NCBI RefSeq assembly: GCF_024700885.2
Contig: NZ_CP117016.1
DNA from: Escherichia coli
GTDB lineage: Bacteria > Pseudomonadota > Gammaproteobacteria > Enterobacterales > Enterobacteriaceae
DNA: 64,000 nt
Reading direction: 5' to 3' (one strand)
Below the pieces are notes generated by a model, which saw nothing but the letters and a program-made list of their open reading frames with translations, was not told where the DNA came from and did no database searches. Positions 1-59,235 of the stretch are shown here, one piece after another. Position numbers and translations under genes: made by a program. Each line of letters opens with the position of its first letter. Position 1 is the stretch's first letter.

Positions 1-69
1 TATCGCCTGCTGGTCATCGAAATAGAATGAGGAGTAGCCAGCGGTGAACAGGGCCTGTTTTATTTTCAT
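1..69 (-). CDS. methylaspartate ammonia-lyase, N-terminal fragment (gene continues beyond window start)
   Basis: Reverse complement of 1-69 translates MKIKQALFTAGYSSFYFDDQQAI, resembling MAL N-terminus; start codon overlaps glmE stop (TAATG); expected partner of glutamate mutase genes. Confidence 0.55.
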   Translation of the reverse strand, partial: MKIKQALFTAGYSSFYFDDQQAI

Positions 70-1514
70 TATGGTCTTCCTATTAATTTACTGTGGGATA
101 CAGCATTGATGTCATCTACAACCATCTGGAATGTCGGTTGGCGTCCTTCAAAGCGTGCGCGTTCCGCAACGTAATCGTGGTGGAGGTCGAGAATATCTTT
201 TGGCAATGGAACGGCTCCGGCTTCCAGTACGCGTATCGCGCCGGTGTTGTCACGGACCGGAAGAATTTTGCCCGCGTTGCAGGCGGCTGGCGCAAACGGC
301 ACATCCAGTACGCCCGCTTCAAATGCCAGCACCGTACCGCGCGCAATATCACCATTACCCAGTTCGAACACTTTATTCAGTACCGCGCGAACCTCGCTCT
401 TAATCAGTTCAATTTCCAGTTCAACCGCAGGGCAAGGCGGGAATTTCTGCTCGTTGACCATGTTGAGCATCTGGCGGGAGGCTTTCAGCCCCTGAATGTT
501 GGCAGCGGCAGTCGGGATGCCCCAGGCTTCGTGCGGACTTTTGGTGATGACTTTGGTGGCACCAGACATCCCCGCGACGGCTGCACCCCAGGAGATAATG
601 GCGAACGCTTTCGATTCGTCTTCCGGAAAGCCGCCCATCCACTGGTGAAACACGGTACTTAATTCATAGTCGGTATAGCCATAGCTCTGAAAGTATTCGT
701 GTGCAAGTTCACGCAGAGACTGGATCGCCGCGACATCCTGCGTCAGGCTGCCGACCTGTCCATAACCAACGGTGATAGATTTCACACCCTGTTCCAGCGC
801 CAGTAATCCTTCGATTATCGCGATAGAGTGCGAGATAAACGGCGGGATCAGCGTACCCGTTAGTGGGCCAAACGGTTCGCGGTTGATGCGGATCCCGTGT
901 TCTTCATACATCCCCATTAAACGATCGCAGTACTGCCAGTCGCGGATCGATTTTTCCAGCGTTACGCGCTTGGCATACGGAATATTGTAGGAAATGCCGC
1001 CGCCTTCATAACTGGTAAAGCCGCTGGCCATCGAGATTTCAGCCAGCAGACGCGCATCTGGCGTGCCGTGGCGGATCTGTAGCGGTTTTTGCAAAGTTTC
1101 GGTGAGGCGACGGCAAGCTGCGACGCCGTGGTTAACTACCGGTAAACCGTTCAGTTTAGAGGTTCCGGCTTCGATGGATTTTTTAATCCCTACAGCCGCT
1201 TCTTCGTACCGATTCAGACGGGTATATGCATCGATGGTGCTCGGCAGCAGATCGCACTCTTCTTGTGGTGTTTTCAGTAGTTCGATGTGTTCGTCCATCA
1301 GCGCCACGCCTGCGCGCGGTTGGCTAAGAGTTTTACCTTCCTTGTCTGCTTTCAGCAGGGCAAGAGAGAAGCGTTTATGCTCAGGAATGGTTTGTTGGTA
1401 TTTAACGCCATCTTCAAAGTTTTCAACATCCTTGCCGGTTTCCCAGGTTTTCAGTACCTGTTGCCGCTCGGTCATGAATTCGTCATGGGTTAATTTCTTA
1501 TTTCGAAGTTCCAT
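69..1514 (-). CDS. glmE: glutamate mutase (methylaspartate mutase) E/epsilon subunit
   Basis: 481-aa ORF; sequence recognised as glutamate mutase E chain; operon context with B12-binding S subunit and L component. Confidence 0.85.
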   Translation of the reverse strand: MELRNKKLTHDEFMTERQQVLKTWETGKDVENFEDGVKYQQTIPEHKRFSLALLKADKEGKTLSQPRAGVALMDEHIELLKTPQEECDLLPSTIDAYTRLNRYEEAAVGIKKSIEAGTSKLNGLPVVNHGVAACRRLTETLQKPLQIRHGTPDARLLAEISMASGFTSYEGGGISYNIPYAKRVTLEKSIRDWQYCDRLMGMYEEHGIRINREPFGPLTGTLIPPFISHSIAIIEGLLALEQGVKSITVGYGQVGSLTQDVAAIQSLRELAHEYFQSYGYTDYELSTVFHQWMGGFPEDESKAFAIISWGAAVAGMSGATKVITKSPHEAWGIPTAAANIQGLKASRQMLNMVNEQKFPPCPAVELEIELIKSEVRAVLNKVFELGNGDIARGTVLAFEAGVLDVPFAPAACNAGKILPVRDNTGAIRVLEAGAVPLPKDILDLHHDYVAERARFEGRQPTFQMVVDDINAVSHSKLIGRP

Positions 1515-1532
1515 TGATTGCAGCCTTAATTG

Positions 1533-1757
1533 TTATAGGGTTAAGCATTGAATACTGGTGCGCGCGGCGGCCAGTGGATCGACTCTGGCGACGTTTGCCA
1601 GCAGTGGTAATAGCCCCCGGGAATCGCGGTAATATTCAAATTCGGTCGGTAAGAGAATGCGTTTACCGTCGTCGTTTAACTCGCGGTATTTCAACCAGTG
1701 ATGCATATCGAACTGACTGGCACGCGAGAGCCATCCGCCGGAACCAACGACTTTACG
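1533..1757 (-). pseudogene. glmL: glutamate mutase component L, C-terminal fragment separated from N-terminal part by IS26
   Basis: Reading frame is continuous with the 2578-3749 fragment once IS26 and one copy of the 8-bp duplication are removed (restored length about 462 aa). Confidence 0.6.
1750..1757. repeat. IS26 target-site duplication, left copy (ACTTTACG)
   Basis: Identical 8 bp directly flank both IS26 ends. Confidence 0.9.
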
Positions 1758-2577
1758 GGCACTGTTGCAAATAGTCGGTGGTGATAAACTTATCATCCCC
1801 TTTTGCTGATGGAGCTGCACATGAACCCATTCAAAGGCCGGCATTTTCAGCGTGACATCATTCTGTGGGCCGTACGCTGGTACTGCAAATACGGCATCAG
1901 TTACCGTGAGCTGCAGGAGATGCTGGCTGAACGCGGAGTGAATGTCGATCACTCCACGATTTACCGCTGGGTTCAGCGTTATGCGCCTGAAATGGAAAAA
2001 CGGCTGCGCTGGTACTGGCGTAACCCTTCCGATCTTTGCCCGTGGCACATGGATGAAACCTACGTGAAGGTCAATGGCCGCTGGGCGTATCTGTACCGGG
2101 CCGTCGACAGCCGGGGCCGCACTGTCGATTTTTATCTCTCCTCCCGTCGTAACAGCAAAGCTGCATACCGGTTTCTGGGTAAAATCCTCAACAACGTGAA
2201 GAAGTGGCAGATCCCGCGATTCATCAACACGGATAAAGCGCCCGCCTATGGTCGCGCGCTTGCTCTGCTCAAACGCGAAGGCCGGTGCCCGTCTGACGTT
2301 GAACACCGACAGATTAAGTACCGGAACAACGTGATTGAATGCGATCATGGCAAACTGAAACGGATAATCGGCGCCACGCTGGGATTTAAATCCATGAAGA
2401 CGGCTTACGCCACCATCAAAGGTATTGAGGTGATGCGTGCACTACGCAAAGGCCAGGCCTCAGCATTTTATTATGGTGATCCCCTGGGCGAAATGCGCCT
2501 GGTAAGCAGAGTTTTTGAAATGTAAGGCCTTTGAATAAGACAAAAGGCTGCCTCATCGCTAACTTTGCAACAGTGCC
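1758..2577 (+). mobile_element. IS26 (IS6 family) insertion sequence, complete 820 bp
   Basis: 14-bp terminal inverted repeats GGCACTGTTGCAAA at 1758-1771 and its complement at 2564-2577; encodes Tnp26. Confidence 0.95.
1821..2525 (+). CDS. tnpA: IS26 transposase Tnp26
   Basis: 234-aa protein starting MNPFKGRHFQRDIILWAVRWYCKYGISYRELQEM, recognised as IS26 transposase. Confidence 0.95.
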   Translation: MNPFKGRHFQRDIILWAVRWYCKYGISYRELQEMLAERGVNVDHSTIYRWVQRYAPEMEKRLRWYWRNPSDLCPWHMDETYVKVNGRWAYLYRAVDSRGRTVDFYLSSRRNSKAAYRFLGKILNNVKKWQIPRFINTDKAPAYGRALALLKREGRCPSDVEHRQIKYRNNVIECDHGKLKRIIGATLGFKSMKTAYATIKGIEVMRALRKGQASAFYYGDPLGEMRLVSRVFEM

Positions 2578-2585
2578 ACTTTACG
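2578..2585. repeat. IS26 target-site duplication, right copy (ACTTTACG)
   Basis: Identical to 1750-1757. Confidence 0.9.
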
Positions 2586-3749
2586 CACGGTTGTCAGGTC
2601 ACGTCCCATCTGTAAATCGACATTGCCGACGCAGGTGCAGACCTCTTTTTTGGTGCCCGCATGTCTTTCGGTGGCATAACCCACACACAGTCCGGCCAGG
2701 ACGGTATCGAAATATTTTTCTTCTGCATTCGCGGGTAAGTAGTCGGGATGAGCGACTAGATGGCGGAGGTAATGATAAAAAGCGTCCAGCTGTGCGGGTT
2801 GCTGAGCAAAATTCACATTGACTAACTCTTTCGCACTTTCACCAACCACCATTGCCGAGACGCGCATTCCCAGATCGCCTTCCACCGTCCGTTTCACGAA
2901 GGGTTCCGGTACGCCGTGTAAAACGGTGTCGGGCGAGAGCGTGTTGGCACAGGCGGAATAGACATCGGTGGTTGCGCCACCCATGTCGATCAGCATGAAC
3001 TCTTTCCAGCTGTGATCGACGTTACTGATTGCCTTAACCAGTTCAAAGACCGTCCATGGTGTCGGCATTGGTTCTTCGCCTGTTTTATCAACAATGACAT
3101 CCAACCCTTTCCCTTTAACGATGCGTTTAAGGAATATGTCGCAGATAGCCTGGCGTGCAGCTAAAGGGTTCGGATGGTCAAGATCGGGCAGAACGTTGTC
3201 GACGATGGTCAGGTCTTTATGCCCGAGGATCTCCTGCACCTCGTCCTGAATATCCCGGTTTCCGGCATAAATAATGGCGCAGTCGAGTTTGGATTCTGCC
3301 AACACACGGGCGTTATTCAGTCCGTAGCTTTCTTCTCCGCCATCGGTGCCGCCGGTGAACAAGAGAATATCGGGCTGCGTTTCTTCCAGTGCCTGGATAT
3401 CACGGCGGTTCAGCTTGTAGGCGTAATATTGCGCAATTTTAGCACCCGCAGAGTGAGCGGTTACTTTCGCGGTTTCCAGGGTGATAGAAGGCACCAATCC
3501 CATTGCGGCAACCGCCAGCCCACCTTTGGCAGAGGAGGAATACTTCAATGCAACCTCACCACTGTTTAACAGGGGGAGGGCATTATCTACGTTTAACACC
3601 TGGTCCAGGCTGGAGAAAAACCCCTTCGCCAGATGATGGGTGGTGGTTGGGGTCAGAACGTGGTTAACCAACGTTAACGCGTCCCCCTCCCGGGTGAAGA
3701 GGGCTGCTTTGGTCCACGTCGAACCAATATCGACAGAGACGATTTGCAT
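2578..3749 (-). pseudogene. glmL: glutamate mutase component L, N-terminal part truncated by IS26
   Basis: ORF 2559-3749 (396 aa) reads 19 nt into IS26 before stopping; start overlaps glmS stop. Confidence 0.65.
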
Positions 3750-4198
3750 CAGATTGCCTCTTCAAGAATGCGAGTATCAACGTCATGACGTTGGTTGATA
3801 TCGTGGGCCATCAGCTGACAAACATCTTCTAAGTCATGACTTGGGGAAAAGACGCGATCAAATCCCATCTCTTTGAACTTGGTTTCCACGTCAGCGAAGT
3901 CATGTTTTCCGACCACCAGGTTACCGCCCACATAGAGCAGGATGTTACCCAGCCCACGCTCGATGCAGCGTTCGCGCATGCCCAGACAATCGATATCGCC
4001 ATGCCCATAGATAGAGGAGACGACAATCGCGTCAGCACCAGTTTCAATGGCAGCATCAATATATTCGTCCTGGCTGACCATTACGCCCAGATTAATAACT
4101 CTGAAGTCATGGTTGCTAAAAACGCGGTCCAGAACTTTATTGCCTACTGCATGGCAGTCCGCGCCAATAACGCCAATCACAAGTGTTGCTTTCTTCAT
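3749..4198 (-). CDS. glmS: glutamate mutase S/sigma subunit, B12-binding
   Basis: Start at [19 protein letters not shown] with an AAGGAT ribosome-binding site upstream; cobalamin-binding-type N-terminus. Confidence 0.8.
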
Positions 4199-4745
4199 GG
4201 GTAATCCTTTGTAAGACAGAGAGTAAAATAAGTTACACACGTCGTATTTATGGCCGCTCATAACGGCACAGGTTTAATATCACAGGAGTGTCTTTATCTG
4301 ACCGTAATGTTGCAATTGATCTATTTTCAAAATGTCTTTCGGGAAATGATTGTTTAAAGTGTGTTTTCAAATTCTCATTTTAATTCAGTGTGTTATGTCA
4401 ACTAATGTCATGAATGTTAAATTTTTAAAATTAACTTGATTTGATGTATTGAGATAATTGTGATCAACTTCTAATTTGCATTTTTGTGACGTGGCTTTAG
4501 CCATGAGTAAATACATTTCATAAAAGTTAAGTCGAATTTCACTGCAATTCATCTCTGCTTAATGTAAAAATAATGTTGAAAATAACAAATAATTAATGAT
4601 TCATGCGAATTATGACCTTTGTTAGCTCTTTTGATTTTTCGTAAAAAAGAAAAGTACATGAAGGTGCTACCAGTACGAGTAACGTTAATCAAAAGTTTTA
4701 TTACGTCTGGCAATAACGCAGGCCATTTTTCGCGACAGGAGGGAT

Positions 4746-5168
4746 TTAATCAGTATAATCCTCATACAATAGGTCAGGATTTACTGAACCGTTAACGGGG
4801 ATTTGGTGTTGAAATTTAGAAATGGCGGAGTCAATTAATGAAGACAATATCGGAAAAATGACAGTGTCAGAATTAATTTCAATTAATCCTTCTCGTTGTT
4901 GACCAAAAAAGATATTTATCTTGATTTCATTTGTACTACGGCAATCAATATGCAGTAATTTTTGATCGCTGAGATTTTCTGTTTCATAAATGTTTTTGGC
5001 GATAGTCGGATGTATTGATGCCAGACATCTGCTCAGATAAGCCAGATCCTTTAGGGAACACCCCGCTGAGTAGAGGATGTCAGAGAATTTTTGTGTGTCA
5101 ACTGTTGTCTCTGAAGCGTATGTTGCATTGACAGGAAGGGTGTTGAAAGAGATTTGAGATGGGATCAT
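4746..5168 (-). CDS. hypothetical protein (140 aa), AT-rich gene
   Basis: ORF in low-GC DNA, same strand and 80 bp downstream of the 314-aa ORF; no recognisable motif. Confidence 0.4.
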   Translation of the reverse strand: MIPSQISFNTLPVNATYASETTVDTQKFSDILYSAGCSLKDLAYLSRCLASIHPTIAKNIYETENLSDQKLLHIDCRSTNEIKINIFFGQQREGLIEINSDTVIFPILSSLIDSAISKFQHQIPVNGSVNPDLLYEDYTD

Positions 5169-5248
5169 TATTTAAATCTTTCCGTGAGTAATAAAAATTA
5201 ATCCCCGGGCATTGTTTAGCAATATTTGCCACAGGGAATATATAAAAA

Positions 5249-6193
5249 TTAAAGTATTTGATTGGCATCGGTTAACTGATCAATAACCAGTGCCAGATTG
5301 GTAAACATTTTGAAAAAGCGATACTGGCTCGGAATATCTCTTTCAAAGACGAAACATTCAATGTCATTGTTTGAAAAATAAAGGACTAGTGTTGCTGATT
5401 CGTCAGGAAAAATATGGAAATATATCTGGTTACCAGAAGGAGGATAGTCCAGATGAAGGGTATCTTTGCCCGTCACATACCTGTTGTGGTCGTGGATGCT
5501 GCGCTCACACTTCATCAGAGGTGTCATGATACTCATGTATTCATCTGATGTTAATATATTAAAATCACCATCCATTTTAAAGAAACGATAAAGTAACAGT
5601 ACATCCTCTTGCGTAACCGGTTCGTTTGTTTTTAGAGGGAAATAAGTGGGAACCAGAAGATGAGGTTCTAATCTATTTTGTTGAGCGCTATAACTAAATT
5701 TGAACATAAATTCCGGATCGCTCATTAATTGAGCGACATAATTATGCCTGGCTTCAAAAATTTTAACTTTTATCAGGTTAAATAAGTCTGTTTCGTTATC
5801 CTGTATTAAAAGACATTGGCCATAGCAGCCAGGCTTTTTTTCATTATAAGCAGAAACGGTTATTCTGTCAGGAGTGTCAACGTTATATCCAAAAGCCAGA
5901 TAGTGACCTTCCTCATCGAGATTTGTTTCCAGGTTATTTAAATTCATCACATGAAGTGTTTGCAATGCTGATTCAATGAGCTGTTGACTCTCTGAGGTAA
6001 ATGTTTCGCGCTGCGTTGTATAAAGTGTATCGATTCCAACGACTATCCGATGTGGGTCAAGGATGGCGGCAATCATCTTTATTACCTGCACAGTCATGGG
6101 TGATGTCATTGATTCTTTATCTGTTTTTAGAGGATCATTAGATGGCCAACCTGAGAAGCGATTGACAGCAGAACTGATATTATCAGGACTCAT
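5249..6193 (-). CDS. hypothetical protein (314 aa) with internal YRFFKM repeat
   Basis: Long ORF in low-GC DNA; motif YRFFKM occurs twice; no recognisable domain. Confidence 0.5.
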   Translation of the reverse strand: MSPDNISSAVNRFSGWPSNDPLKTDKESMTSPMTVQVIKMIAAILDPHRIVVGIDTLYTTQRETFTSESQQLIESALQTLHVMNLNNLETNLDEEGHYLAFGYNVDTPDRITVSAYNEKKPGCYGQCLLIQDNETDLFNLIKVKIFEARHNYVAQLMSDPEFMFKFSYSAQQNRLEPHLLVPTYFPLKTNEPVTQEDVLLLYRFFKMDGDFNILTSDEYMSIMTPLMKCERSIHDHNRYVTGKDTLHLDYPPSGNQIYFHIFPDESATLVLYFSNNDIECFVFERDIPSQYRFFKMFTNLALVIDQLTDANQIL

Positions 6194-6647
6194 AGCAGCA
6201 ACCTCATTGTAATCAAGCGAGGCGCTGAGCGTACTCGGCTATAGAAAAACTAACTTGCAAAAATCGCTCATTTTTCATTTATCAGGCGAAAGTGGTCTCT
6301 GTTCACTCAGAAACAATCACTCCCGCTAAGTCATACCTGTATCATCGATACATTTAAGTGATTATTACTAATGAAACAATAACATAACGGGCTTACGGCC
6401 GGTGCTCATAAACGCAACAATCAATTAACTTTGATAAAAATATGTTATGTAAAATAGCAACAAATTGGCTAATCTAATCAATTGGTATTATAAAAAGTGG
6501 ATAAGGCGGTTCTGTTAAATAAAACACTGGTTTTTTATCTATACCTTTTCATTGTAATAATTGTGTTGCATAAATATTTCACAATAAATTAACAATAAAA
6601 TTACCAATGATCTATGGTTTATACATAATTAACATATTTGGTTGGTT

Positions 6648-6661
6648 TTGATATAAATCAA
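6648..6661. promoter_or_regulatory. FNR-type binding site (TTGAT-N4-ATCAA) in cydA control region
   Basis: Exact match TTGATATAAATCAA in the long AT-rich leader upstream of cydA. Confidence 0.45.
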
Positions 6662-6998
6662 TTTTTAATTCTTGAAAAAAATCTGCAAAACACGATAAAT
6701 TGTCGTAGATCAAATTGGTGAGATCGTGACAATTTCGCTATAAATTGATCACTGTCGAAAAATGCAAATTTGCTCAATAAAAACCTGTTTATTGTAAGGA
6801 TTTTGCGGCGTAATATAATTACGGGATCAATTTGGTTTATTCATTAACATATTTGTAACTTTTTTATCATTGTCTTTTCCTCTTTTGATGAAATGGCAAC
6901 GATAGAGGCGAGCAAATAATTTTGTATTGGGGCATGCGTGTGACCCTTTCTAACGGGGTTCACTCTCGGAGTCTTCATGCGATGAGCAAGGAGTCATG

Positions 6999-8567
6999 AT
7001 GTTAGATATAGTCGAACTGTCGCGCTTACAGTTTGCCTTGACCGCGATGTACCACTTCCTTTTTGTGCCACTGACGCTCGGTATGGCGTTCCTGCTGGCC
7101 ATTATGGAAACGGTCTACGTCCTTTCCGGCAAACAGATTTATAAAGATATGACCAAGTTCTGGGGCAAGTTGTTTGGTATCAACTTCGCTCTGGGTGTGG
7201 CTACCGGTCTGACCATGGAGTTCCAGTTCGGGACTAACTGGTCTTACTATTCCCACTATGTAGGGGATATCTTCGGTGCGCCGCTGGCAATCGAAGGTCT
7301 AATGGCCTTCTTCCTCGAATCCACCTTTGTAGGTCTGTTCTTCTTCGGTTGGGATCGTCTGGGTAAAGTTCAGCATATGTGTGTCACCTGGCTGGTGGCG
7401 CTCGGTTCAAACCTGTCCGCACTGTGGATTCTGGTTGCGAACGGCTGGATGCAAAACCCAATCGCGTCCGATTTCAACTTTGAAACTATGCGTATGGAGA
7501 TGGTGAGCTTCTCCGAGCTGGTGCTTAACCCGGTTGCTCAGGTGAAATTCGTTCACACTGTAGCGTCTGGTTATGTGACTGGCGCGATGTTCATCCTCGG
7601 TATCAGCGCATGGTATATGCTGAAAGGTCGTGACTTCGCCTTCGCTAAACGCTCCTTTGCTATCGCTGCCAGCTTCGGTATGGCTGCCGTTCTGTCTGTT
7701 ATTGTTCTGGGTGATGAATCTGGTTACGAAATGGGCGACGTGCAGAAAACCAAACTGGCTGCTATTGAAGCCGAGTGGGAAACGCAACCTGCGCCTGCTG
7801 CCTTTACTCTGTTCGGCATTCCTGATCAGGAAGAGGAGACGAACAAATTTGCGATCCAGATCCCTTACGCGCTGGGCATCATTGCAACGCGTTCCGTGGA
7901 TACTCCAGTTATCGGCCTGAAAGAACTGATGGTGCAGCATGAAGAACGCATTCGTAACGGGATGAAGGCGTACTCTCTGCTCGAGCAACTGCGTTCTGGT
8001 TCTACCGACCAGGCGGTTCGTGACCAGTTCAATAGCATGAAGAAAGACCTCGGTTACGGTCTGCTGCTGAAACGCTATACGCCAAACGTGGCTGATGCGA
8101 CTGAAGCGCAGATTCAACAGGCAACCAAAGACTCCATTCCGCGTGTAGCGCCGCTGTACTTCGCGTTCCGTATCATGGTGGCGTGTGGCTTCCTGCTGCT
8201 GGCAATCATCGCGCTCTCTTTCTGGAGTGTCATCCGCAACCGCATTGGCGAGAAAAAATGGCTGCTGCGCGCCGCGCTGTACGGTATTCCGCTGCCGTGG
8301 ATTGCTGTAGAAGCGGGCTGGTTTGTGGCTGAATATGGCCGCCAACCGTGGGCTATCGGTGAAGTGCTGCCGACAGCTGTGGCGAACTCGTCACTGACCG
8401 CAGGTGATCTCATCTTCTCAATGGTGCTGATTTGCGGCCTGTATACCCTGTTCCTGGTGGCAGAATTGTTCTTAATGTTTAAATTTGCACGCCTCGGCCC
8501 AAGCAGCCTGAAAACCGGTCGCTATCACTTTGAGCAGTCTTCCACGACTACTCAGCCGGCACGCTAA
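6999..8567 (+). CDS. cydA: cytochrome bd-I ubiquinol oxidase subunit I
   Basis: 522-aa protein [23 protein letters not shown], recognised. Confidence 0.95.
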
Positions 8568-8582
8568 GACAGGAGTCGTCAA

Positions 8583-9722
8583 ATGATCGATTATGAAGTA
8601 TTGCGTTTTATCTGGTGGCTGCTGGTTGGCGTTCTGCTGATTGGTTTTGCAGTCACTGACGGTTTCGACATGGGGGTGGGCATGCTCACCCGTTTCCTCG
8701 GTCGTAACGACACCGAGCGTCGAATTATGATTAACTCCATTGCACCACACTGGGACGGTAACCAGGTTTGGCTGATCACCGCAGGCGGCGCACTCTTTGC
8801 TGCCTGGCCGATGGTCTATGCCGCTGCGTTCTCCGGCTTCTATGTGGCGATGATCCTCGTGCTGGCGTCTTTGTTCTTCCGTCCGGTCGGTTTTGACTAC
8901 CGCTCCAAGATTGAAGAAACCCGCTGGCGTAACATGTGGGACTGGGGCATCTTCATTGGTAGCTTCGTTCCGCCGCTGGTGATTGGTGTAGCGTTCGGTA
9001 ACCTGTTGCAGGGCGTACCGTTCAACGTTGATGAATATCTGCGTCTGTACTACACCGGTAACTTCTTCCAGCTGCTTAACCCGTTCGGCCTGCTGGCAGG
9101 CGTGGTGAGCGTAGGGATGATCATTACTCAGGGCGCAACCTATCTGCAAATGCGTACCGTGGGCGAACTGCACCTGCGTACCCGTGCAACGGCTCAGGTG
9201 GCGGCACTGGTGACACTGGTCTGTTTCGCACTGGCTGGCGTATGGGTGATGTACGGTATCGATGGTTATGTTGTGAAATCAACAATGGATCATTACGCGG
9301 CATCTAACCCACTGAATAAAGAAGTGGTTCGTGAAGCTGGCGCATGGCTGGTTAACTTCAACAACACGCCGATTCTGTGGGCTATTCCGGCACTGGGTGT
9401 GGTTCTGCCGCTGCTGACCATCCTGACTGCACGTATGGATAAAGCCGCGTGGGCGTTTGTGTTCTCCTCCCTGACGCTGGCCTGCATCATCCTGACAGCC
9501 GGTATCGCAATGTTCCCGTTTGTGATGCCGTCCAGCACCATGATGAACGCAAGTCTGACAATGTGGGATGCAACTTCCAGCCAGCTGACACTTAACGTCA
9601 TGACCTGGGTTGCGGTGGTTCTGGTACCGATCATTCTGCTCTACACTGCCTGGTGTTACTGGAAAATGTTCGGTCGTATCACCAAAGAAGATATTGAACG
9701 TAACACCCACTCTCTGTACTAA
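8583..9722 (+). CDS. cydB: cytochrome bd-I ubiquinol oxidase subunit II
   Basis: 379-aa membrane protein, recognised. Confidence 0.95.
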   Translation: MIDYEVLRFIWWLLVGVLLIGFAVTDGFDMGVGMLTRFLGRNDTERRIMINSIAPHWDGNQVWLITAGGALFAAWPMVYAAAFSGFYVAMILVLASLFFRPVGFDYRSKIEETRWRNMWDWGIFIGSFVPPLVIGVAFGNLLQGVPFNVDEYLRLYYTGNFFQLLNPFGLLAGVVSVGMIITQGATYLQMRTVGELHLRTRATAQVAALVTLVCFALAGVWVMYGIDGYVVKSTMDHYAASNPLNKEVVREAGAWLVNFNNTPILWAIPALGVVLPLLTILTARMDKAAWAFVFSSLTLACIILTAGIAMFPFVMPSSTMMNASLTMWDATSSQLTLNVMTWVAVVLVPIILLYTAWCYWKMFGRITKEDIERNTHSLY

Positions 9723-9736
9723 GTAAGGAGCTAAAA

Positions 9737-9850
9737 ATGTGGTATTTCGCATGGATTCTGGGAACGCTTCTTGCCTGTTCGTTTGGGGTAATCACTGCGC
9801 TGGCGCTTGAGCACGTCGAATCAGGCAAAGCCGGTCAAGAAGACATCTGA
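9737..9850 (+). CDS. cydX: cytochrome bd-I small subunit CydX (37 aa)
   Basis: MWYFAWILGTLLACSFGVITALALEHVESGKAGQEDI; below the ORF-track size cutoff. Confidence 0.85.
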   Translation: MWYFAWILGTLLACSFGVITALALEHVESGKAGQEDI

Positions 9851-10143
9851 TGAGTAAGATTATCGCAACCTTGTATGCGGTAATGGACAAGCGCCCCCTG
9901 CGGGCGCTTTCCTTCGTGATGGCGCTTCTGTTAGCAGGATGTATGTTTTGGGACCCATCTCGTTTTGCCGCGAAGACCAGTGAACTGGAAATCTGGCATG
10001 GTTTATTGCTGATGTGGGCCGTCTGTGCTGGTGTGATTCACGGCGTGGGCTTTCGTCCGCAGAAGGTTCTCTGGCAAGGGATTTTTTGCCCATTGCTTGC
10101 CGATATTGTTCTCATTGTCGGGCTGATTTTCTTCTTCTTTTAA
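9850..10143 (+). CDS. ybgE: small inner membrane protein YbgE
   Basis: 97-aa ORF following cydX. Confidence 0.85.
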   Translation: MSKIIATLYAVMDKRPLRALSFVMALLLAGCMFWDPSRFAAKTSELEIWHGLLLMWAVCAGVIHGVGFRPQKVLWQGIFCPLLADIVLIVGLIFFFF

Positions 10144-10292
10144 ATCAGAATTCTCTTTAAAAAATTATGGGCCGCTCCAGGCCCATAAATTTTTACGCTC
10201 CCTTAACTTGCCCTCATTCCCAAACCTCAATCGCGCGCGTATAGTAGCAGCGTTTAAAAGCTCTAACTTTTGTTGCATTACCGGGATGTAAA

Positions 10293-11386
<1,094 letters not shown>

Positions 11387-14583: not shown

Positions 14584-15129
<546 letters not shown>

Positions 15130-15138
15130 GAGAATTGC

Positions 15139-15930
15139 ATGAGCAGTAACTTCAGACATCAACTATTGAGTCTGTCGTTACTGGTTGGTATAGCGGCCCC
15201 CTGGGCCGCTTTTGCTCAGGCACCAATCAGTAGTGTCGGCTCAGGCTCGGTCGAAGACCGCGTCACTCAACTTGAGCGTATTTCAAATGCTCACAGCCAG
15301 CTTTTAACCCAACTCCAGCAACAACTCTCTGATAATCAATCCGATATTGATTCCCTGCGCGGTCAGATTCAGGAAAATCAGTATCAACTGAATCAGGTCG
15401 TGGAGCGGCAAAAGCAGATCCTGTTGCAGATCGACAGCCTCAGCAGCGGTGGTGCAGCGGCGCAATCAACCAGCGGTGATCAAAGCGGTGCGGCGACATC
15501 AACGACGCCGACAGCTGATGCTGGTACTGCGAATGCTGGCGCGCCGGTGAAAAGCGGCGATGCAAACACGGATTACAATGCAGCAATTGCGCTGGTGCAG
15601 GATAAATCCCGCCAGGATGACGCAATGGTGGCATTTCAGAATTTCATCAAAAATTACCCTGATTCAACTTACCTGCCAAACGCCAATTATTGGCTGGGTC
15701 AGTTAAACTACAACAAGGGTAAAAAAGATGATGCGGCGTATTATTTTGCTTCGGTAGTGAAAAACTATCCGAAGTCACCGAAGGCTGCAGATGCGATGTT
15801 TAAAGTCGGCGTCATCATGCAGGACAAAGGTGACACCGCAAAAGCGAAAGCCGTATACCAGCAGGTTATCAGTAAATACCCTGGTACTGATGGCGCTAAA
15901 CAGGCGCAAAAACGTCTGAACGCGATGTAA
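15139..15930 (+). CDS. cpoB: cell division coordinator CpoB (YbgF), TPR protein
   Basis: 263-aa protein, recognised. Confidence 0.9.
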   Translation: MSSNFRHQLLSLSLLVGIAAPWAAFAQAPISSVGSGSVEDRVTQLERISNAHSQLLTQLQQQLSDNQSDIDSLRGQIQENQYQLNQVVERQKQILLQIDSLSSGGAAAQSTSGDQSGAATSTTPTADAGTANAGAPVKSGDANTDYNAAIALVQDKSRQDDAMVAFQNFIKNYPDSTYLPNANYWLGQLNYNKGKKDDAAYYFASVVKNYPKSPKAADAMFKVGVIMQDKGDTAKAKAVYQQVISKYPGTDGAKQAQKRLNAM

Positions 15931-16094: not shown

Positions 16095-16170
16095 GGGTCG
16101 TTAGCTCAGTTGGTAGAGCAGTTGACTTTTAATCAATTGGTCGCAGGTTCGAATCCTGCACGACCCACCA
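16095..16170 (+). tRNA. lysT: tRNA-Lys (anticodon UUU)
   Basis: 76-nt cloverleaf GGGTCGTTAGCTCAGTTGGTAGAGC...ACGACCCACCA with CTTTTAA anticodon loop. Confidence 0.95.
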
Positions 16171-16198
16171 ATCGCTAAGGTGGACGCGGTAGTAAAAC

Positions 16199-16270
16199 GT
16201 GAAGGATAACGTTGCGTCAGCAACGGCCCGAAGGGCGAGACGAAGTCGAGTCATCCTGCACGACCCACCA
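16199..16270 (+). repeat. spacer repeat ending in a copy of the tRNA-Lys 3' terminus
   Basis: About 70 bp GTGAAGGATAACGTTGCGTCAGCAACGGCCCG...TCATCCTGCACGACCCACCA; second copy at 16694-16763. Confidence 0.7.
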
Positions 16271-16305
16271 CTAACCTAGTTAGTTGTAGTATCCAGCGTA
16301 GTATC

Positions 16306-16381
16306 GGGTGATTAGCTCAGCTGGGAGAGCACCTCCCTTACAAGGAGGGGGTCGGCGGTTCGATCCCGTCATCACCCACCA
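16306..16381 (+). tRNA. valT: tRNA-Val (anticodon UAC)
   Basis: 76-nt cloverleaf GGGTGATTAGCTCAGCTGGGAGAGC...CATCACCCACCA. Confidence 0.95.
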
Positions 16382-16383
16382 CC

Positions 16384-16459
16384 GGGTCGTTAGCTCAGTT
16401 GGTAGAGCAGTTGACTTTTAATCAATTGGTCGCAGGTTCGAATCCTGCACGACCCACCA
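16384..16459 (+). tRNA. lysW: tRNA-Lys (anticodon UUU)
   Basis: Identical to lysT. Confidence 0.95.
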
Positions 16460-16510
16460 CTAATTACGGTGGGTTCGGTGGAAGTAGTTTGTAGTATCCA
16501 GCGCAGTATC

Positions 16511-16586
16511 GGGTGATTAGCTCAGCTGGGAGAGCACCTCCCTTACAAGGAGGGGGTCGGCGGTTCGATCCCGTCATCACCCACCA
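16511..16586 (+). tRNA. valZ: tRNA-Val (anticodon UAC)
   Basis: Identical to valT. Confidence 0.95.
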
Positions 16587-16589
16587 CTC

Positions 16590-16665
16590 GGGTCGTTAGC
16601 TCAGTTGGTAGAGCAGTTGACTTTTAATCAATTGGTCGCAGGTTCGAATCCTGCACGACCCACCA
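16590..16665 (+). tRNA. lysY: tRNA-Lys (anticodon UUU)
   Basis: Identical to lysT. Confidence 0.95.
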
Positions 16666-16693
16666 ATTTTAACATCAAACTCAGATGTTAAGC

Positions 16694-16763
16694 GTGAAGG
16701 ATAACGTTGCGTCAGCAACGGCCCGTAGGGCGAGCGAAGCGAGTCATCCTGCACGACCCACCA
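16694..16763 (+). repeat. spacer repeat ending in a copy of the tRNA-Lys 3' terminus (second copy)
   Basis: Near-identical to 16199-16270. Confidence 0.7.
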
Positions 16764-16811
16764 ATTTTAAAGATTGGTTCCGAGTAGAAATCTTTCAGGT
16801 AACACCCGTAT

Positions 16812-16887
16812 GGGTCGTTAGCTCAGTTGGTAGAGCAGTTGACTTTTAATCAATTGGTCGCAGGTTCGAATCCTGCACGACCCACCA
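16812..16887 (+). tRNA. lysZ: tRNA-Lys (anticodon UUU)
   Basis: Identical to lysT. Confidence 0.95.
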
Positions 16888-16920
16888 TCCTGAATGATTA
16901 AAGCAGCATAATCCCGCAAG

Positions 16921-16996
16921 GGGTCGTTAGCTCAGTTGGTAGAGCAGTTGACTTTTAATCAATTGGTCGCAGGTTCGAATCCTGCACGACCCACCA
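16921..16996 (+). tRNA. lysQ: tRNA-Lys (anticodon UUU)
   Basis: Identical to lysT. Confidence 0.95.
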
Positions 16997-42448: not shown

Positions 42449-43519
42449 TTATTTGATTTCAATTTTGTCCCACTCCCTGCCTCTGTCATCACGATACTGT
42501 GATGCCATGGTGTCCGACTTATGCCCGAGAAGATGTTGAGCAAACTTATCGCTTATCTGCTTCTCATAGAGTCTTGCAGACAAACTGCGCAACTCGTGAA
42601 AGGTTGGCGGATCCCCTTCGAAGGAAAGACCTGATGCTTTTCGTGCGCGCATAAAATACCTTGATACTGTGCCGGATGAAAGCGGTTCACGACGAGTAGA
42701 TGCAATTATGGTTTCTCCGCCAAGAATCTCTTTGCATTTACCAAGTGTTTCCTTCATTGATATCCCGAGAGCATCAACATGCAATGTTGTAGGGATGGCA
42801 ATTTTTACGCCTGTTTTGCTTTGCTCGACATAAAGATATCCATCTACGATATCAGACCACTTCATTTCGCATAAATCACCAACTCGCTGCCCGGTAACAA
42901 CAGCCAGTTCCATTGCAAGTCTGAGCCAACATGGTGATGATTCTGCTGCTTGATAAATTTTCAGGTATTCGTCAGCCGTAAGTCTTGATCTCCTTACCTC
43001 TGATTTTGCTGCGCGAGTGGCAGCGACCGGGTTTGTTGTTATATGGCCTTCAGCTATTGCCTCTCGGAATGCATCGCTCAGTGTTGATCTGATTAACTTG
43101 GCTGACGCCGCCTTGCCCTCGTCTATGTATCCATTGAGCATTGCCGCAATTTCTTTTGTGGTGATGTCTTCAAGTGAAACATCAGGCAGACCCCTCCTTA
43201 TTGCTTTAATTTTGCTCATGTAATTTATGAGTGTCTTCTGCTTGATTCCTCTGCTGGCGAGGATTTTTTCGTAGCGATCAAGCCATGAATGTAACGTAAC
43301 AGAATTATCACTGTTGATTCTCGCTGTCAGAGGCTTGTGTTTGTGTCCTGAAAATAACTCAATATTGGCCTGTATTGCTTCAGTAATTGCTATCCTCCTG
43401 TCTCTGCCTAATCCGAACTCTTTACCCGTCCTTGGGTCCCTGTAGCAGTAATATCCATTGTTTCTTATATAAAGGTTAGGGGGTAAATCCCGGCGCTCAT
43501 GACTTCGCCTTCTTCCCAT
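42449..43519 (-). CDS. int: lambda-type integrase (tyrosine recombinase)
   Basis: 356-aa protein MGRRRSHERRDLPPNLYIRNNGYYCYRDPRTGKEFGLG, recognised as lambda Int. Confidence 0.95.
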   Translation of the reverse strand: MGRRRSHERRDLPPNLYIRNNGYYCYRDPRTGKEFGLGRDRRIAITEAIQANIELFSGHKHKPLTARINSDNSVTLHSWLDRYEKILASRGIKQKTLINYMSKIKAIRRGLPDVSLEDITTKEIAAMLNGYIDEGKAASAKLIRSTLSDAFREAIAEGHITTNPVAATRAAKSEVRRSRLTADEYLKIYQAAESSPCWLRLAMELAVVTGQRVGDLCEMKWSDIVDGYLYVEQSKTGVKIAIPTTLHVDALGISMKETLGKCKEILGGETIIASTRREPLSSGTVSRYFMRARKASGLSFEGDPPTFHELRSLSARLYEKQISDKFAQHLLGHKSDTMASQYRDDRGREWDKIEIK

Positions 43520-59079: not shown

Positions 59080-59154
59080 GGGTCAGTCGTATAAAGGTCA
59101 TTACGGAAGGCTGTTAACCTTCTTATCGTGGTTCGAGTCCACGCTGTCCCGCCA
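59080..59154 (+). tRNA. phage-encoded tRNA, anticodon GUU (Asn-type), slightly non-canonical
   Basis: Manual fold: acceptor GGGTCAG/CTGTCCC (one mismatch), D-loop with GG, anticodon arm GAAGG-CTGTTAA-CCTTC, T-arm CGTGG-TTCGAGT-CCACG, discriminator G, CCA. Confidence 0.55.
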
Positions 59155-59159
59155 AATAT

Positions 59160-59235
59160 GCTGGTTTAGCTCCAATGGTAGAGCAGTCGCCTTGTAAACG
59201 AATGGGTAGCGGTTCAAGTCCGTTAACCAGCACCA
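59160..59235 (+). tRNA. phage-encoded tRNA, anticodon UGU (Thr-type), weak anticodon stem
   Basis: Manual fold: acceptor GCTGGTT/AACCAGC perfect, D-arm GCTC-CAATGGTA-GAGC, T-loop TTCAAGT, CCA; anticodon stem has two mismatches. Confidence 0.5.

Follow-up and report, generated by a model that had tools for sequence, protein, structure and literature searches.

Very probably, positions 1-6622 of the Escherichia coli stretch analysed here (64,000 nucleotides of contig NZ_CP117016.1, called the window throughout) are the cydA-proximal end of an accessory island of about 14 kb, and the insertion sequence IS26 has transposed into the island's glmL, which lies between the glmS and glmE genes for the two subunits of a predicted glutamate mutase. 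The locus is already known: it was noticed in the O157:H7 genomes, and Kronen and Berg analysed it in detail in 2015 (PMC4682846); new here is the lineage-private IS26 allele of glmL only.

A six-frame listing of open reading frames (ORFs) over positions 1-9000 shows a run of genes on the minus strand and, after it, cydA on the plus strand (Table 1), and genes were called with NCBIfam equivalog models at their own cut-offs, with Pfam, and by comparison with solved structures. Homology searches, on which an earlier note on this DNA had staked its assignment, gave equivalog, Pfam and structure matches, and we read these ORFs as the predicted S and E subunits of glutamate (methylaspartate) mutase, the accessory protein GlmL and the start of the methylaspartate ammonia-lyase gene mal. 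The glmS product scored 251 bits against NF002612 (cut-off 110) and 245 bits against TIGR01501 (cut-off 135.8), and that of glmE scored 861 bits against TIGR01503 (cut-off 390), filling profile positions 1-480 of 480, and 709 bits against PF06368. The interrupted glmL is represented by a 396-aa ORF, which matched TIGR01319 at 759 bits (cut-off 204; profile positions 1-386 of 456) and PF13941 (MutL) at 418 bits; the Pfam calls are concordant (Met_asp_mut_E, B12-binding and MutL). Against a further equivalog, NF040745, the same ORF reached 458 bits over profile positions 2-390 of 459 and fell under the cut-off of 475 because it is truncated; it is a disrupted member of GlmL rather than a non-member.

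The structural comparisons point the same way. GlmE aligns end to end with the epsilon subunit of Clostridium cochlearium (PDB 1CCW and 6H9E; E=1e-189), and in the alignment to 1CCW and to chain B of 6H9E the equivalents of R66, R100, R149, E171 and Y181 are conserved, residues which, from the clostridial literature, we take to be the substrate-binding arginines and the catalytic Glu and Tyr. In GlmS, the DxHxxG cobalamin-ligand motif (D14-C-H16-A-V-G19) lines up with its counterpart in the C. cochlearium protein (PDB 1I9C, E=3e-49), and the annotated start of the gene at 4198 (MKKATL...) coincides with the end coordinate in the earlier note. GlmS and GlmE are accordingly annotated as a putative adenosylcobalamin-dependent glutamate mutase, EC 5.4.99.1, the activity being predicted. 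On the minus strand, bases 69-1 encode MKIKQALFTAGYSSFYFDDQQAI, the N-terminus of the 413-aa methylaspartate ammonia-lyase WP_000695025.1 of strain MLI114. The compact, overlapping operon that had been described is borne out by the junctions, with 1-nt overlaps between the glmS stop and glmL start (TGATG) and between the glmE stop and mal start (TAATG), and a gap of 18 nt from the glmL stop to the glmE start. Annotation of the identical MLI114 sequence by PGAP names the same enzyme genes.

One could envision instead that these ORFs belong to a different B12-dependent system, of the ornithine or lysine aminomutase or methylmalonyl-CoA mutase type, since GlmS has weak secondary matches to other B12-binding domains and GlmL to a GlmL-related ornithine-degradation protein. 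These secondary matches lie far below their cut-offs (for example, 235 bits against a cut-off of 600 for NF040744), whereas the glutamate mutase equivalogs are well past theirs and GlmE matches a solved glutamate mutase over its whole length; in addition, mal and the mesaconase gene fumD (PMC4682846) are adjacent. We therefore rejected another mutase identity, which in view of these scores is practically untenable.

The element within glmL is a canonical IS26 of the IS6 family, with a length of 820 bp, 14-bp terminal repeats, a single DDE transposase and an 8-bp target duplication. Its terminal repeat, GGCACTGTTGCAAA, is perfect over 14 bp and is found in two inverted copies in the 64-kb window, where none would be expected by chance; at least 5000 plasmids carry an IS26 that matches it at 100% over all 820 bp. 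The insertion splits glmL after codon 391 of 462. Removal in silico of positions 1758-2585, comprising IS26 and one copy of the duplication, restores an intact glmL of 1389 bp (462 aa), the product of which is identical to WP_001167709.1, the protein of MLI114 named GlmL by PGAP. As it stands, the interrupted ORF encodes 391 native residues followed by ALLQS and ends at a stop 19 nt inside IS26, at 2559. The C-terminal 71 residues of GlmL are lost, among them a glycine-rich VVGSGGW stretch that may be part of the nucleotide-binding fold. A 400-bp query spanning the glmL-IS26 junction was found in none of 5426 complete E. coli genomes. The mechanism is the same as in IS26 gene disruptions generally; only the target, glmL, appears to be unrecorded among complete E. 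coli genomes.

Among these genomes the best match to the locus is strain MLI114 (human stool, Mali). Its public chromosome (NZ_CP117013.1, assembly version.2) matches the window from end to end at 100.000% identity over 63,172 bp, the exception being the 828 bp of IS26 and its target duplication. That chromosome, in which the locus has a single matching place, has no IS26. The 8,286-bp MLI114 plasmid p8_MLI114 (NZ_CP117012.1, recorded as 'linear') carries, at 107-926, a copy identical to ours at 820/820 bases and is a plausible donor. Because the junction is in no genome, the MLI114 chromosome is without IS26 and p8_MLI114 has an identical copy, transposition from a resident plasmid to the chromosome, in this strain or a sibling, is the simplest history, and the insertion is probably recent and private to the lineage. 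The same facts could be taken to mean that IS26 is not a stable chromosomal feature at all, but an assembly artefact, a sub-population variant (e.g., a resolved IS26-mediated p8_MLI114 cointegrate) or a difference between versions of the MLI114 assembly, and both the sequence identity to a chromosome free of IS26 and the recorded linearity of the small plasmid with the identical element would fit such an account. However, the element is complete at 820 bp, with intact inverted repeats and a perfect 8-bp duplication, hallmarks that a mis-join would normally be without, and we regard this account as decidedly unlikely and plasmid-to-chromosome transposition as the better explanation.

The island reads, from sdhX to cydA, as a gene for a LysR regulator, cobO, fumD, a gltP-like gene, a DUF4387 gene, an AtuA/DUF1446 gene, mal, glmE, glmL, glmS, orf140 and orf314. 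In the MLI114 annotation of this interval (sucD/sdhX to cydA), cobO encodes a cob(I)yrinic acid a,c-diamide adenosyltransferase, fumD a class I fumarate hydratase, and the transporter gene a dicarboxylate/amino acid:cation symporter. As the earlier note had it for mngAB, the slot is otherwise occupied in K-12: mngR-mngA-mngB, for a mannosylglycerate phosphotransferase system and hydrolase and unrelated to the island in genes and function, fill the interval there, which starts at the end of sdhX and stops 373 bp short of cydA. By alignment the replacement is clean, as homology to K-12 breaks directly after sdhX and resumes at window position 6623, such that 13,969 bp replace 5,932 bp. The locus does lie upstream of cydAB, as had been stated, although the stretch from 4199 to 6998, with two orphan ORFs and AT-rich spacer sequence, separates glmS from cydA. 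Positions 1-4000 have a GC content of 51-56%, which drops to 29-40% between 4000 and 7000. Upstream of glmS, Rfam gave no match at E<=1 in positions 1-9000 to a cobalamin riboswitch or to any other structured RNA, and a consensus promoter scan of positions 1-7100 gave 13 promoter-like sites against 13.0 expected.

The accessory nature of the island was evident in a megablast comparison with the 5426 complete genomes, in which presence was scored at 80% coverage or more. The island (the locus without IS26) is present in 1121 genomes, O157:H7 Sakai included, whereas mngRAB is the majority allele, with 3864. About 440 genomes have neither mngRAB nor the glm island at this coverage. At least four different contents are found in the interval between sdhX/sucD and cydA, a multi-allelic hotspot: mngRAB, the glm island, a lone TPR protein (strain 21KM1392), and an ORF resembling an outer-membrane protein (OMP) together with an orf314 homologue (Logan contig SRR11658232_8). 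Matches to the intact glmS-glmL-glmE segment came from 1135 genomes and reached 80% coverage or more in 1122 of these, and a single uninterrupted glmS-glmE alignment of 3301-3302 bp was obtained for 59 of 60 evenly sampled carriers. Damage to this segment is thus rare, at around 1% of carriers. The exception among the 60, E. coli O127:H6 (NZ_LT903847.1, 4109900-4110409), has only a 510-bp glmS remnant, an independent decay of the island. Between MLI114 and Sakai the ratio of nonsynonymous to synonymous substitution rates (dN/dS) is 0.053 for glmS, 0.048 for glmL, 0.020 for glmE and 0.034 for mal, values which indicate strong purifying selection on all four genes.

The same 12 genes, in the same order and slot, make up ECs_0755-ECs_0767 of O157:H7 Sakai, whose island is 98.1% identical in nucleotide sequence to that of MLI114 over 13,970 bp; identities are 147/149 for GlmS, 459/462 for GlmL, 479/481 for GlmE (ECs_0762) and 411/413 for Mal. 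Sakai differs in having a glmL without IS26 and an orf314 that is 93% identical. In an older annotation, Sakai ECs_0760 and ECs_0759, the AtuA/DUF1446 and DUF4387 genes, are mislabelled 'methylaspartate ammonia-lyase' and 'acyl-CoA synthetase', respectively. Searching the literature for the locus tags ECs0761-0767 gave no result.

Read from its genes, the island would encode the upper part of the methylaspartate (mesaconate) pathway, as far as (S)-citramalate. GlmS and GlmE would convert (S)-glutamate to (2S,3S)-3-methylaspartate, Mal would deaminate this to mesaconate, and FumD would hydrate mesaconate to (S)-citramalate; CobO would adenosylate salvaged cobalamin, and GlmL, an ATPase-like accessory protein, is presumed to be a reactivating chaperone. 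E. coli is known to salvage corrinoids and not to synthesise them de novo. As to the supply of B12, which the earlier note had proposed to check, btuB, the gene for the outer-membrane B12 transporter, is in 5425 of the 5426 genomes and cobO lies inside the island itself. No citramalate lyase gene is annotated in the island of either MLI114 or Sakai, which leaves it short of a complete fermentation of the Clostridium type. Of the glutamate fermentation that had been claimed, the steps to (S)-citramalate are thus encoded, but the term is overstated for a locus with no citramalate lyase (PMC4682846). The AtuA/DUF1446 and DUF4387 genes stand directly downstream of mal, beyond the start of the window (9140-10824 of the extended locus sequence L001, in which window position 6623 is 17795). 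Their products would be candidates to catalyse the step missing downstream of mesaconate or citramalate.

The operon of C. cochlearium and C. tetanomorphum (glmS-glmL-glmE, also called mutS-mutL-mutE, and mal) has the same S-L-E-mal order. The clostridial clusters add a heterodimeric mesaconase (MesAB) and citramalate lyase (CitDEF, CitCXG) and so provide the complete fermentation route (PMC4682846), whereas the E. coli island has instead the single-chain FumD, CobO, a GltP-like transporter and the AtuA/DUF4387 pair, and no citramalate lyase. In PLoS One in 2015, Kronen and Berg reported the cluster from 14.8% of Enterobacteriaceae, 26.5% of E. coli and 90.6% of O157:H7 strains. An additional class I fumarase is co-localised with it in every case; they gave this the name FumD and demonstrated that it acts as a mesaconase, with a kcat/Km for mesaconate of 2x10^6 M^-1 s^-1, and they listed GltP, CobA, a LysR regulator and a DUF1446 gene with the cluster (PMC4682846). 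They found no conditions under which the O157:H7 cluster was expressed and no citramalate lyase activity, which left the fate of citramalate and the physiological role of the pathway unknown (PMC4682846). Mal activity as a marker of the pathway in enterobacteria goes back to Kato and Asano (1997), as far as that work is cited in PMC4682846. A literature search for functional work on the E. coli cluster after 2015 found none.

What the insertion does to the pathway has to be weighed with more care. Truncation would be expected to abolish GlmL. From the stop at 2559 to the glmE start codon about 1045 nt go untranslated, and this roughly 1 kb of RNA, antisense to IS26, would lower the expression of glmE, mal and further genes through polarity; such polarity, of the Rho-dependent kind, is likely. 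Through the loss of GlmL and polarity together, the pathway in this isolate is probably non-functional or much weakened, and that it is substantially impaired seems to us rather more probable than the contrary. Disruption is rare among carriers, and a recent loss of function is the best reading of the IS26 allele. The claim that the locus is inactivated by IS26 therefore stands in part: the element is inside glmL, but inactivation is deduced, the gene hit encodes an accessory chaperone, and the catalytic subunits GlmS and GlmE are intact.

Besides the public assembly of a sequence-identical strain without the IS26, which may indicate a sub-population variant or an assembly-version difference, several points weigh against reading the window as an inactivated pathway. 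Mal is represented in the window by 23 codons, and the polarity is deduced from the anatomy of the operon. Clostridial GlmS and GlmE alone are said, from work in the Marsh and Buckel laboratories, to give active enzyme in vitro without MutL, so that loss of GlmL need not abolish catalysis. None of the laboratory conditions tried induced the cluster in O157:H7, where no citramalate lyase activity was found either (PMC4682846); with the cluster silent in culture, the phenotypic cost of the insertion may be nil there.

The insertion could thus be neutral or mildly deleterious, with GlmL dispensable, transcription reading through IS26, and the pathway as functional, or as silent, as it is elsewhere. 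Such an outcome would accord with the intact GlmS and GlmE, which are 99% identical to those of Sakai, with the reported activity of the clostridial subunits and with the silence of the cluster in the laboratory (PMC4682846); moreover, a terminator scan of positions 1-7100 gave 6 hits against 7.7 expected from shuffled sequence, with none on the minus strand, the operon sense strand, within IS26. However, purifying selection on glmL is as strong as on the catalytic genes, and glmL is uninterrupted in about 99% of carriers, which argues for its importance in nature; the stop at 2559, with the long untranslated stretch that follows, would also be the classic condition for Rho-dependent polarity. 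We consider a neutral or nearly neutral insertion unlikely, if still worth keeping in mind, and prefer impairment of the pathway.

IS26 hybrid promoters are well documented. Alternatively, then, a -35 element in the terminal repeat might form an outward hybrid promoter driving glmE, mal and the genes beyond, such that IS26 would rewire the operon and bypass its silent native promoter. An outward-facing TTGCAA does lie at the end of IS26 adjoining the glmL 3' fragment, but the hexamer 17 nt downstream, TTGGTT, matches TATAAT at only 2/6 positions, a spacing of 16 or 18 nt offers no improvement, and GlmL would be truncated regardless. Rescue of this kind was rejected as highly improbable, and impairment remains the reading we favour.

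The two orphan ORFs between glmS and cydA deserve separate comment. Neither orf140 nor orf314 has a match in Pfam, NCBIfam, PADLOC or PHROGs, and among 1.84 billion representatives, searched by word index and exhaustively with phmmer, no homologue was found outside Escherichia/Shigella, only copies and fragments. Compared with Sakai, orf140 has a dN/dS of 0.17 and its AF2 model a pLDDT of 46; for the fast-evolving orf314 the ratio is about 0.45, against 0.02-0.05 in the glm genes, and the pLDDT is 44, so that confidence in either model is low. Across dS=0.5, orf314 stays open at 314 codons. A copy of the same length and 65% identical adjoins cydA in the Escherichia Logan contig SRR11658232_8, without glm genes or mngRAB, and orf314 would by this comparison belong to the cydA flank of the hotspot. 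Also on this contig is an ORF of 258 aa whose hydrophobic N-terminus, judged by eye, looks like a signal peptide, and which we take for an outer-membrane protein. No complete E. coli genome covers 80% or more of this haplotype of OMP-like ORF and orf314 homologue; the search revealed the TPR-protein haplotype.

Elsewhere in the window, a lambdoid prophage with P22-like packaging genes (portal, terminase) extends from about 42,400 to 64,000 and past the window end. It is integrated beside ybhC in the gal-bio (lambda attB) region and contains an integrase gene (42449-43519) and genes for tRNA-Asn (59080-59154) and tRNA-Thr (59160-59235). The CpoB/ybgF RNA thermometer (15030-15168; Rfam RF02782, 142 bits) and the seven tRNA genes lysT-valT-lysW-valZ-lysY-lysZ-lysQ with two RtT elements (16095-16996) are ordinary core features.

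Table 1. Features of the glm island end, the IS26 insertion and the cydA flank (window coordinates)
Feature	Position	Strand	Basis or remark
mal (methylaspartate ammonia-lyase), first 23 codons	1-69	-	remainder beyond window start
glmE, predicted glutamate mutase epsilon (catalytic) subunit, intact, 481 aa	69-1514	-	TIGR01503, PF06368
glmL, whole interrupted gene	1533-3749	-	TIGR01319, PF13941
glmL 3' fragment, codons 389-462 and stop	1533-1757	-	first 8 bases are the left target duplication
Left copy of 8-bp target duplication	1750-1757		ACTTTACG
IS26, 820 bp	1758-2577	+	14-bp inverted repeats at 1758-1771 and 2564-2577
Transposase ORF in six-frame listing, 240 aa	1803-2525	+	
tnp26	1821-2525	+ (antisense to glm operon)	NF033587 IS6 transposase, 275 bits
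Six-frame ORF, glmL 5' part, 396 aa	2559-3749	-	
Right copy of 8-bp target duplication	2578-2585		ACTTTACG
glmL 5' fragment, codons 1-391	2578-3749	-	
glmS, predicted glutamate mutase sigma (B12-binding) subunit, intact, 149 aa	3749-4198	-	NF002612, TIGR01501, PF02310
Six-frame ORF holding glmS and an upstream extension, 170 aa	3749-4261	-	
AT-rich spacer upstream of glmS (31-38% GC)	4199-4745		presumed operon promoter/regulatory region
orf140, 140 aa, part of island	4746-5168	-	Sakai ECs_0766
orf314, 314 aa	5249-6193	-	Sakai ECs_0767
Right island boundary; conserved cydA promoter region	6623-6998	+	blastn: L001 17795 (window 6623) aligns with K-12 sequence L003 at 9086
cydA	6999-8567	+	six-frame ORF from 6996
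cydB ORF	from 8583	+	

The question for the field is why about one fifth of E. coli keep a strongly conserved B12-dependent cluster that has never been seen expressed, and what becomes of its citramalate. The window answers neither part; what it offers is a rare natural disruption allele, and probably one more case in which IS26 has passed from a resident plasmid to the chromosome. Together, the window and the public MLI114 genome make up a natural isogenic pair, glmL::IS26 and intact, otherwise the same over 63 kb. We suggest, tentatively, that orf140 and orf314 may be a real, fast-evolving protein module of unknown fold, confined to Escherichia, which would belong to the cydA flank and not to the glm pathway, and that the isogenic pair could serve to test whether this laboratory-silent but conserved island has a role in the gut.

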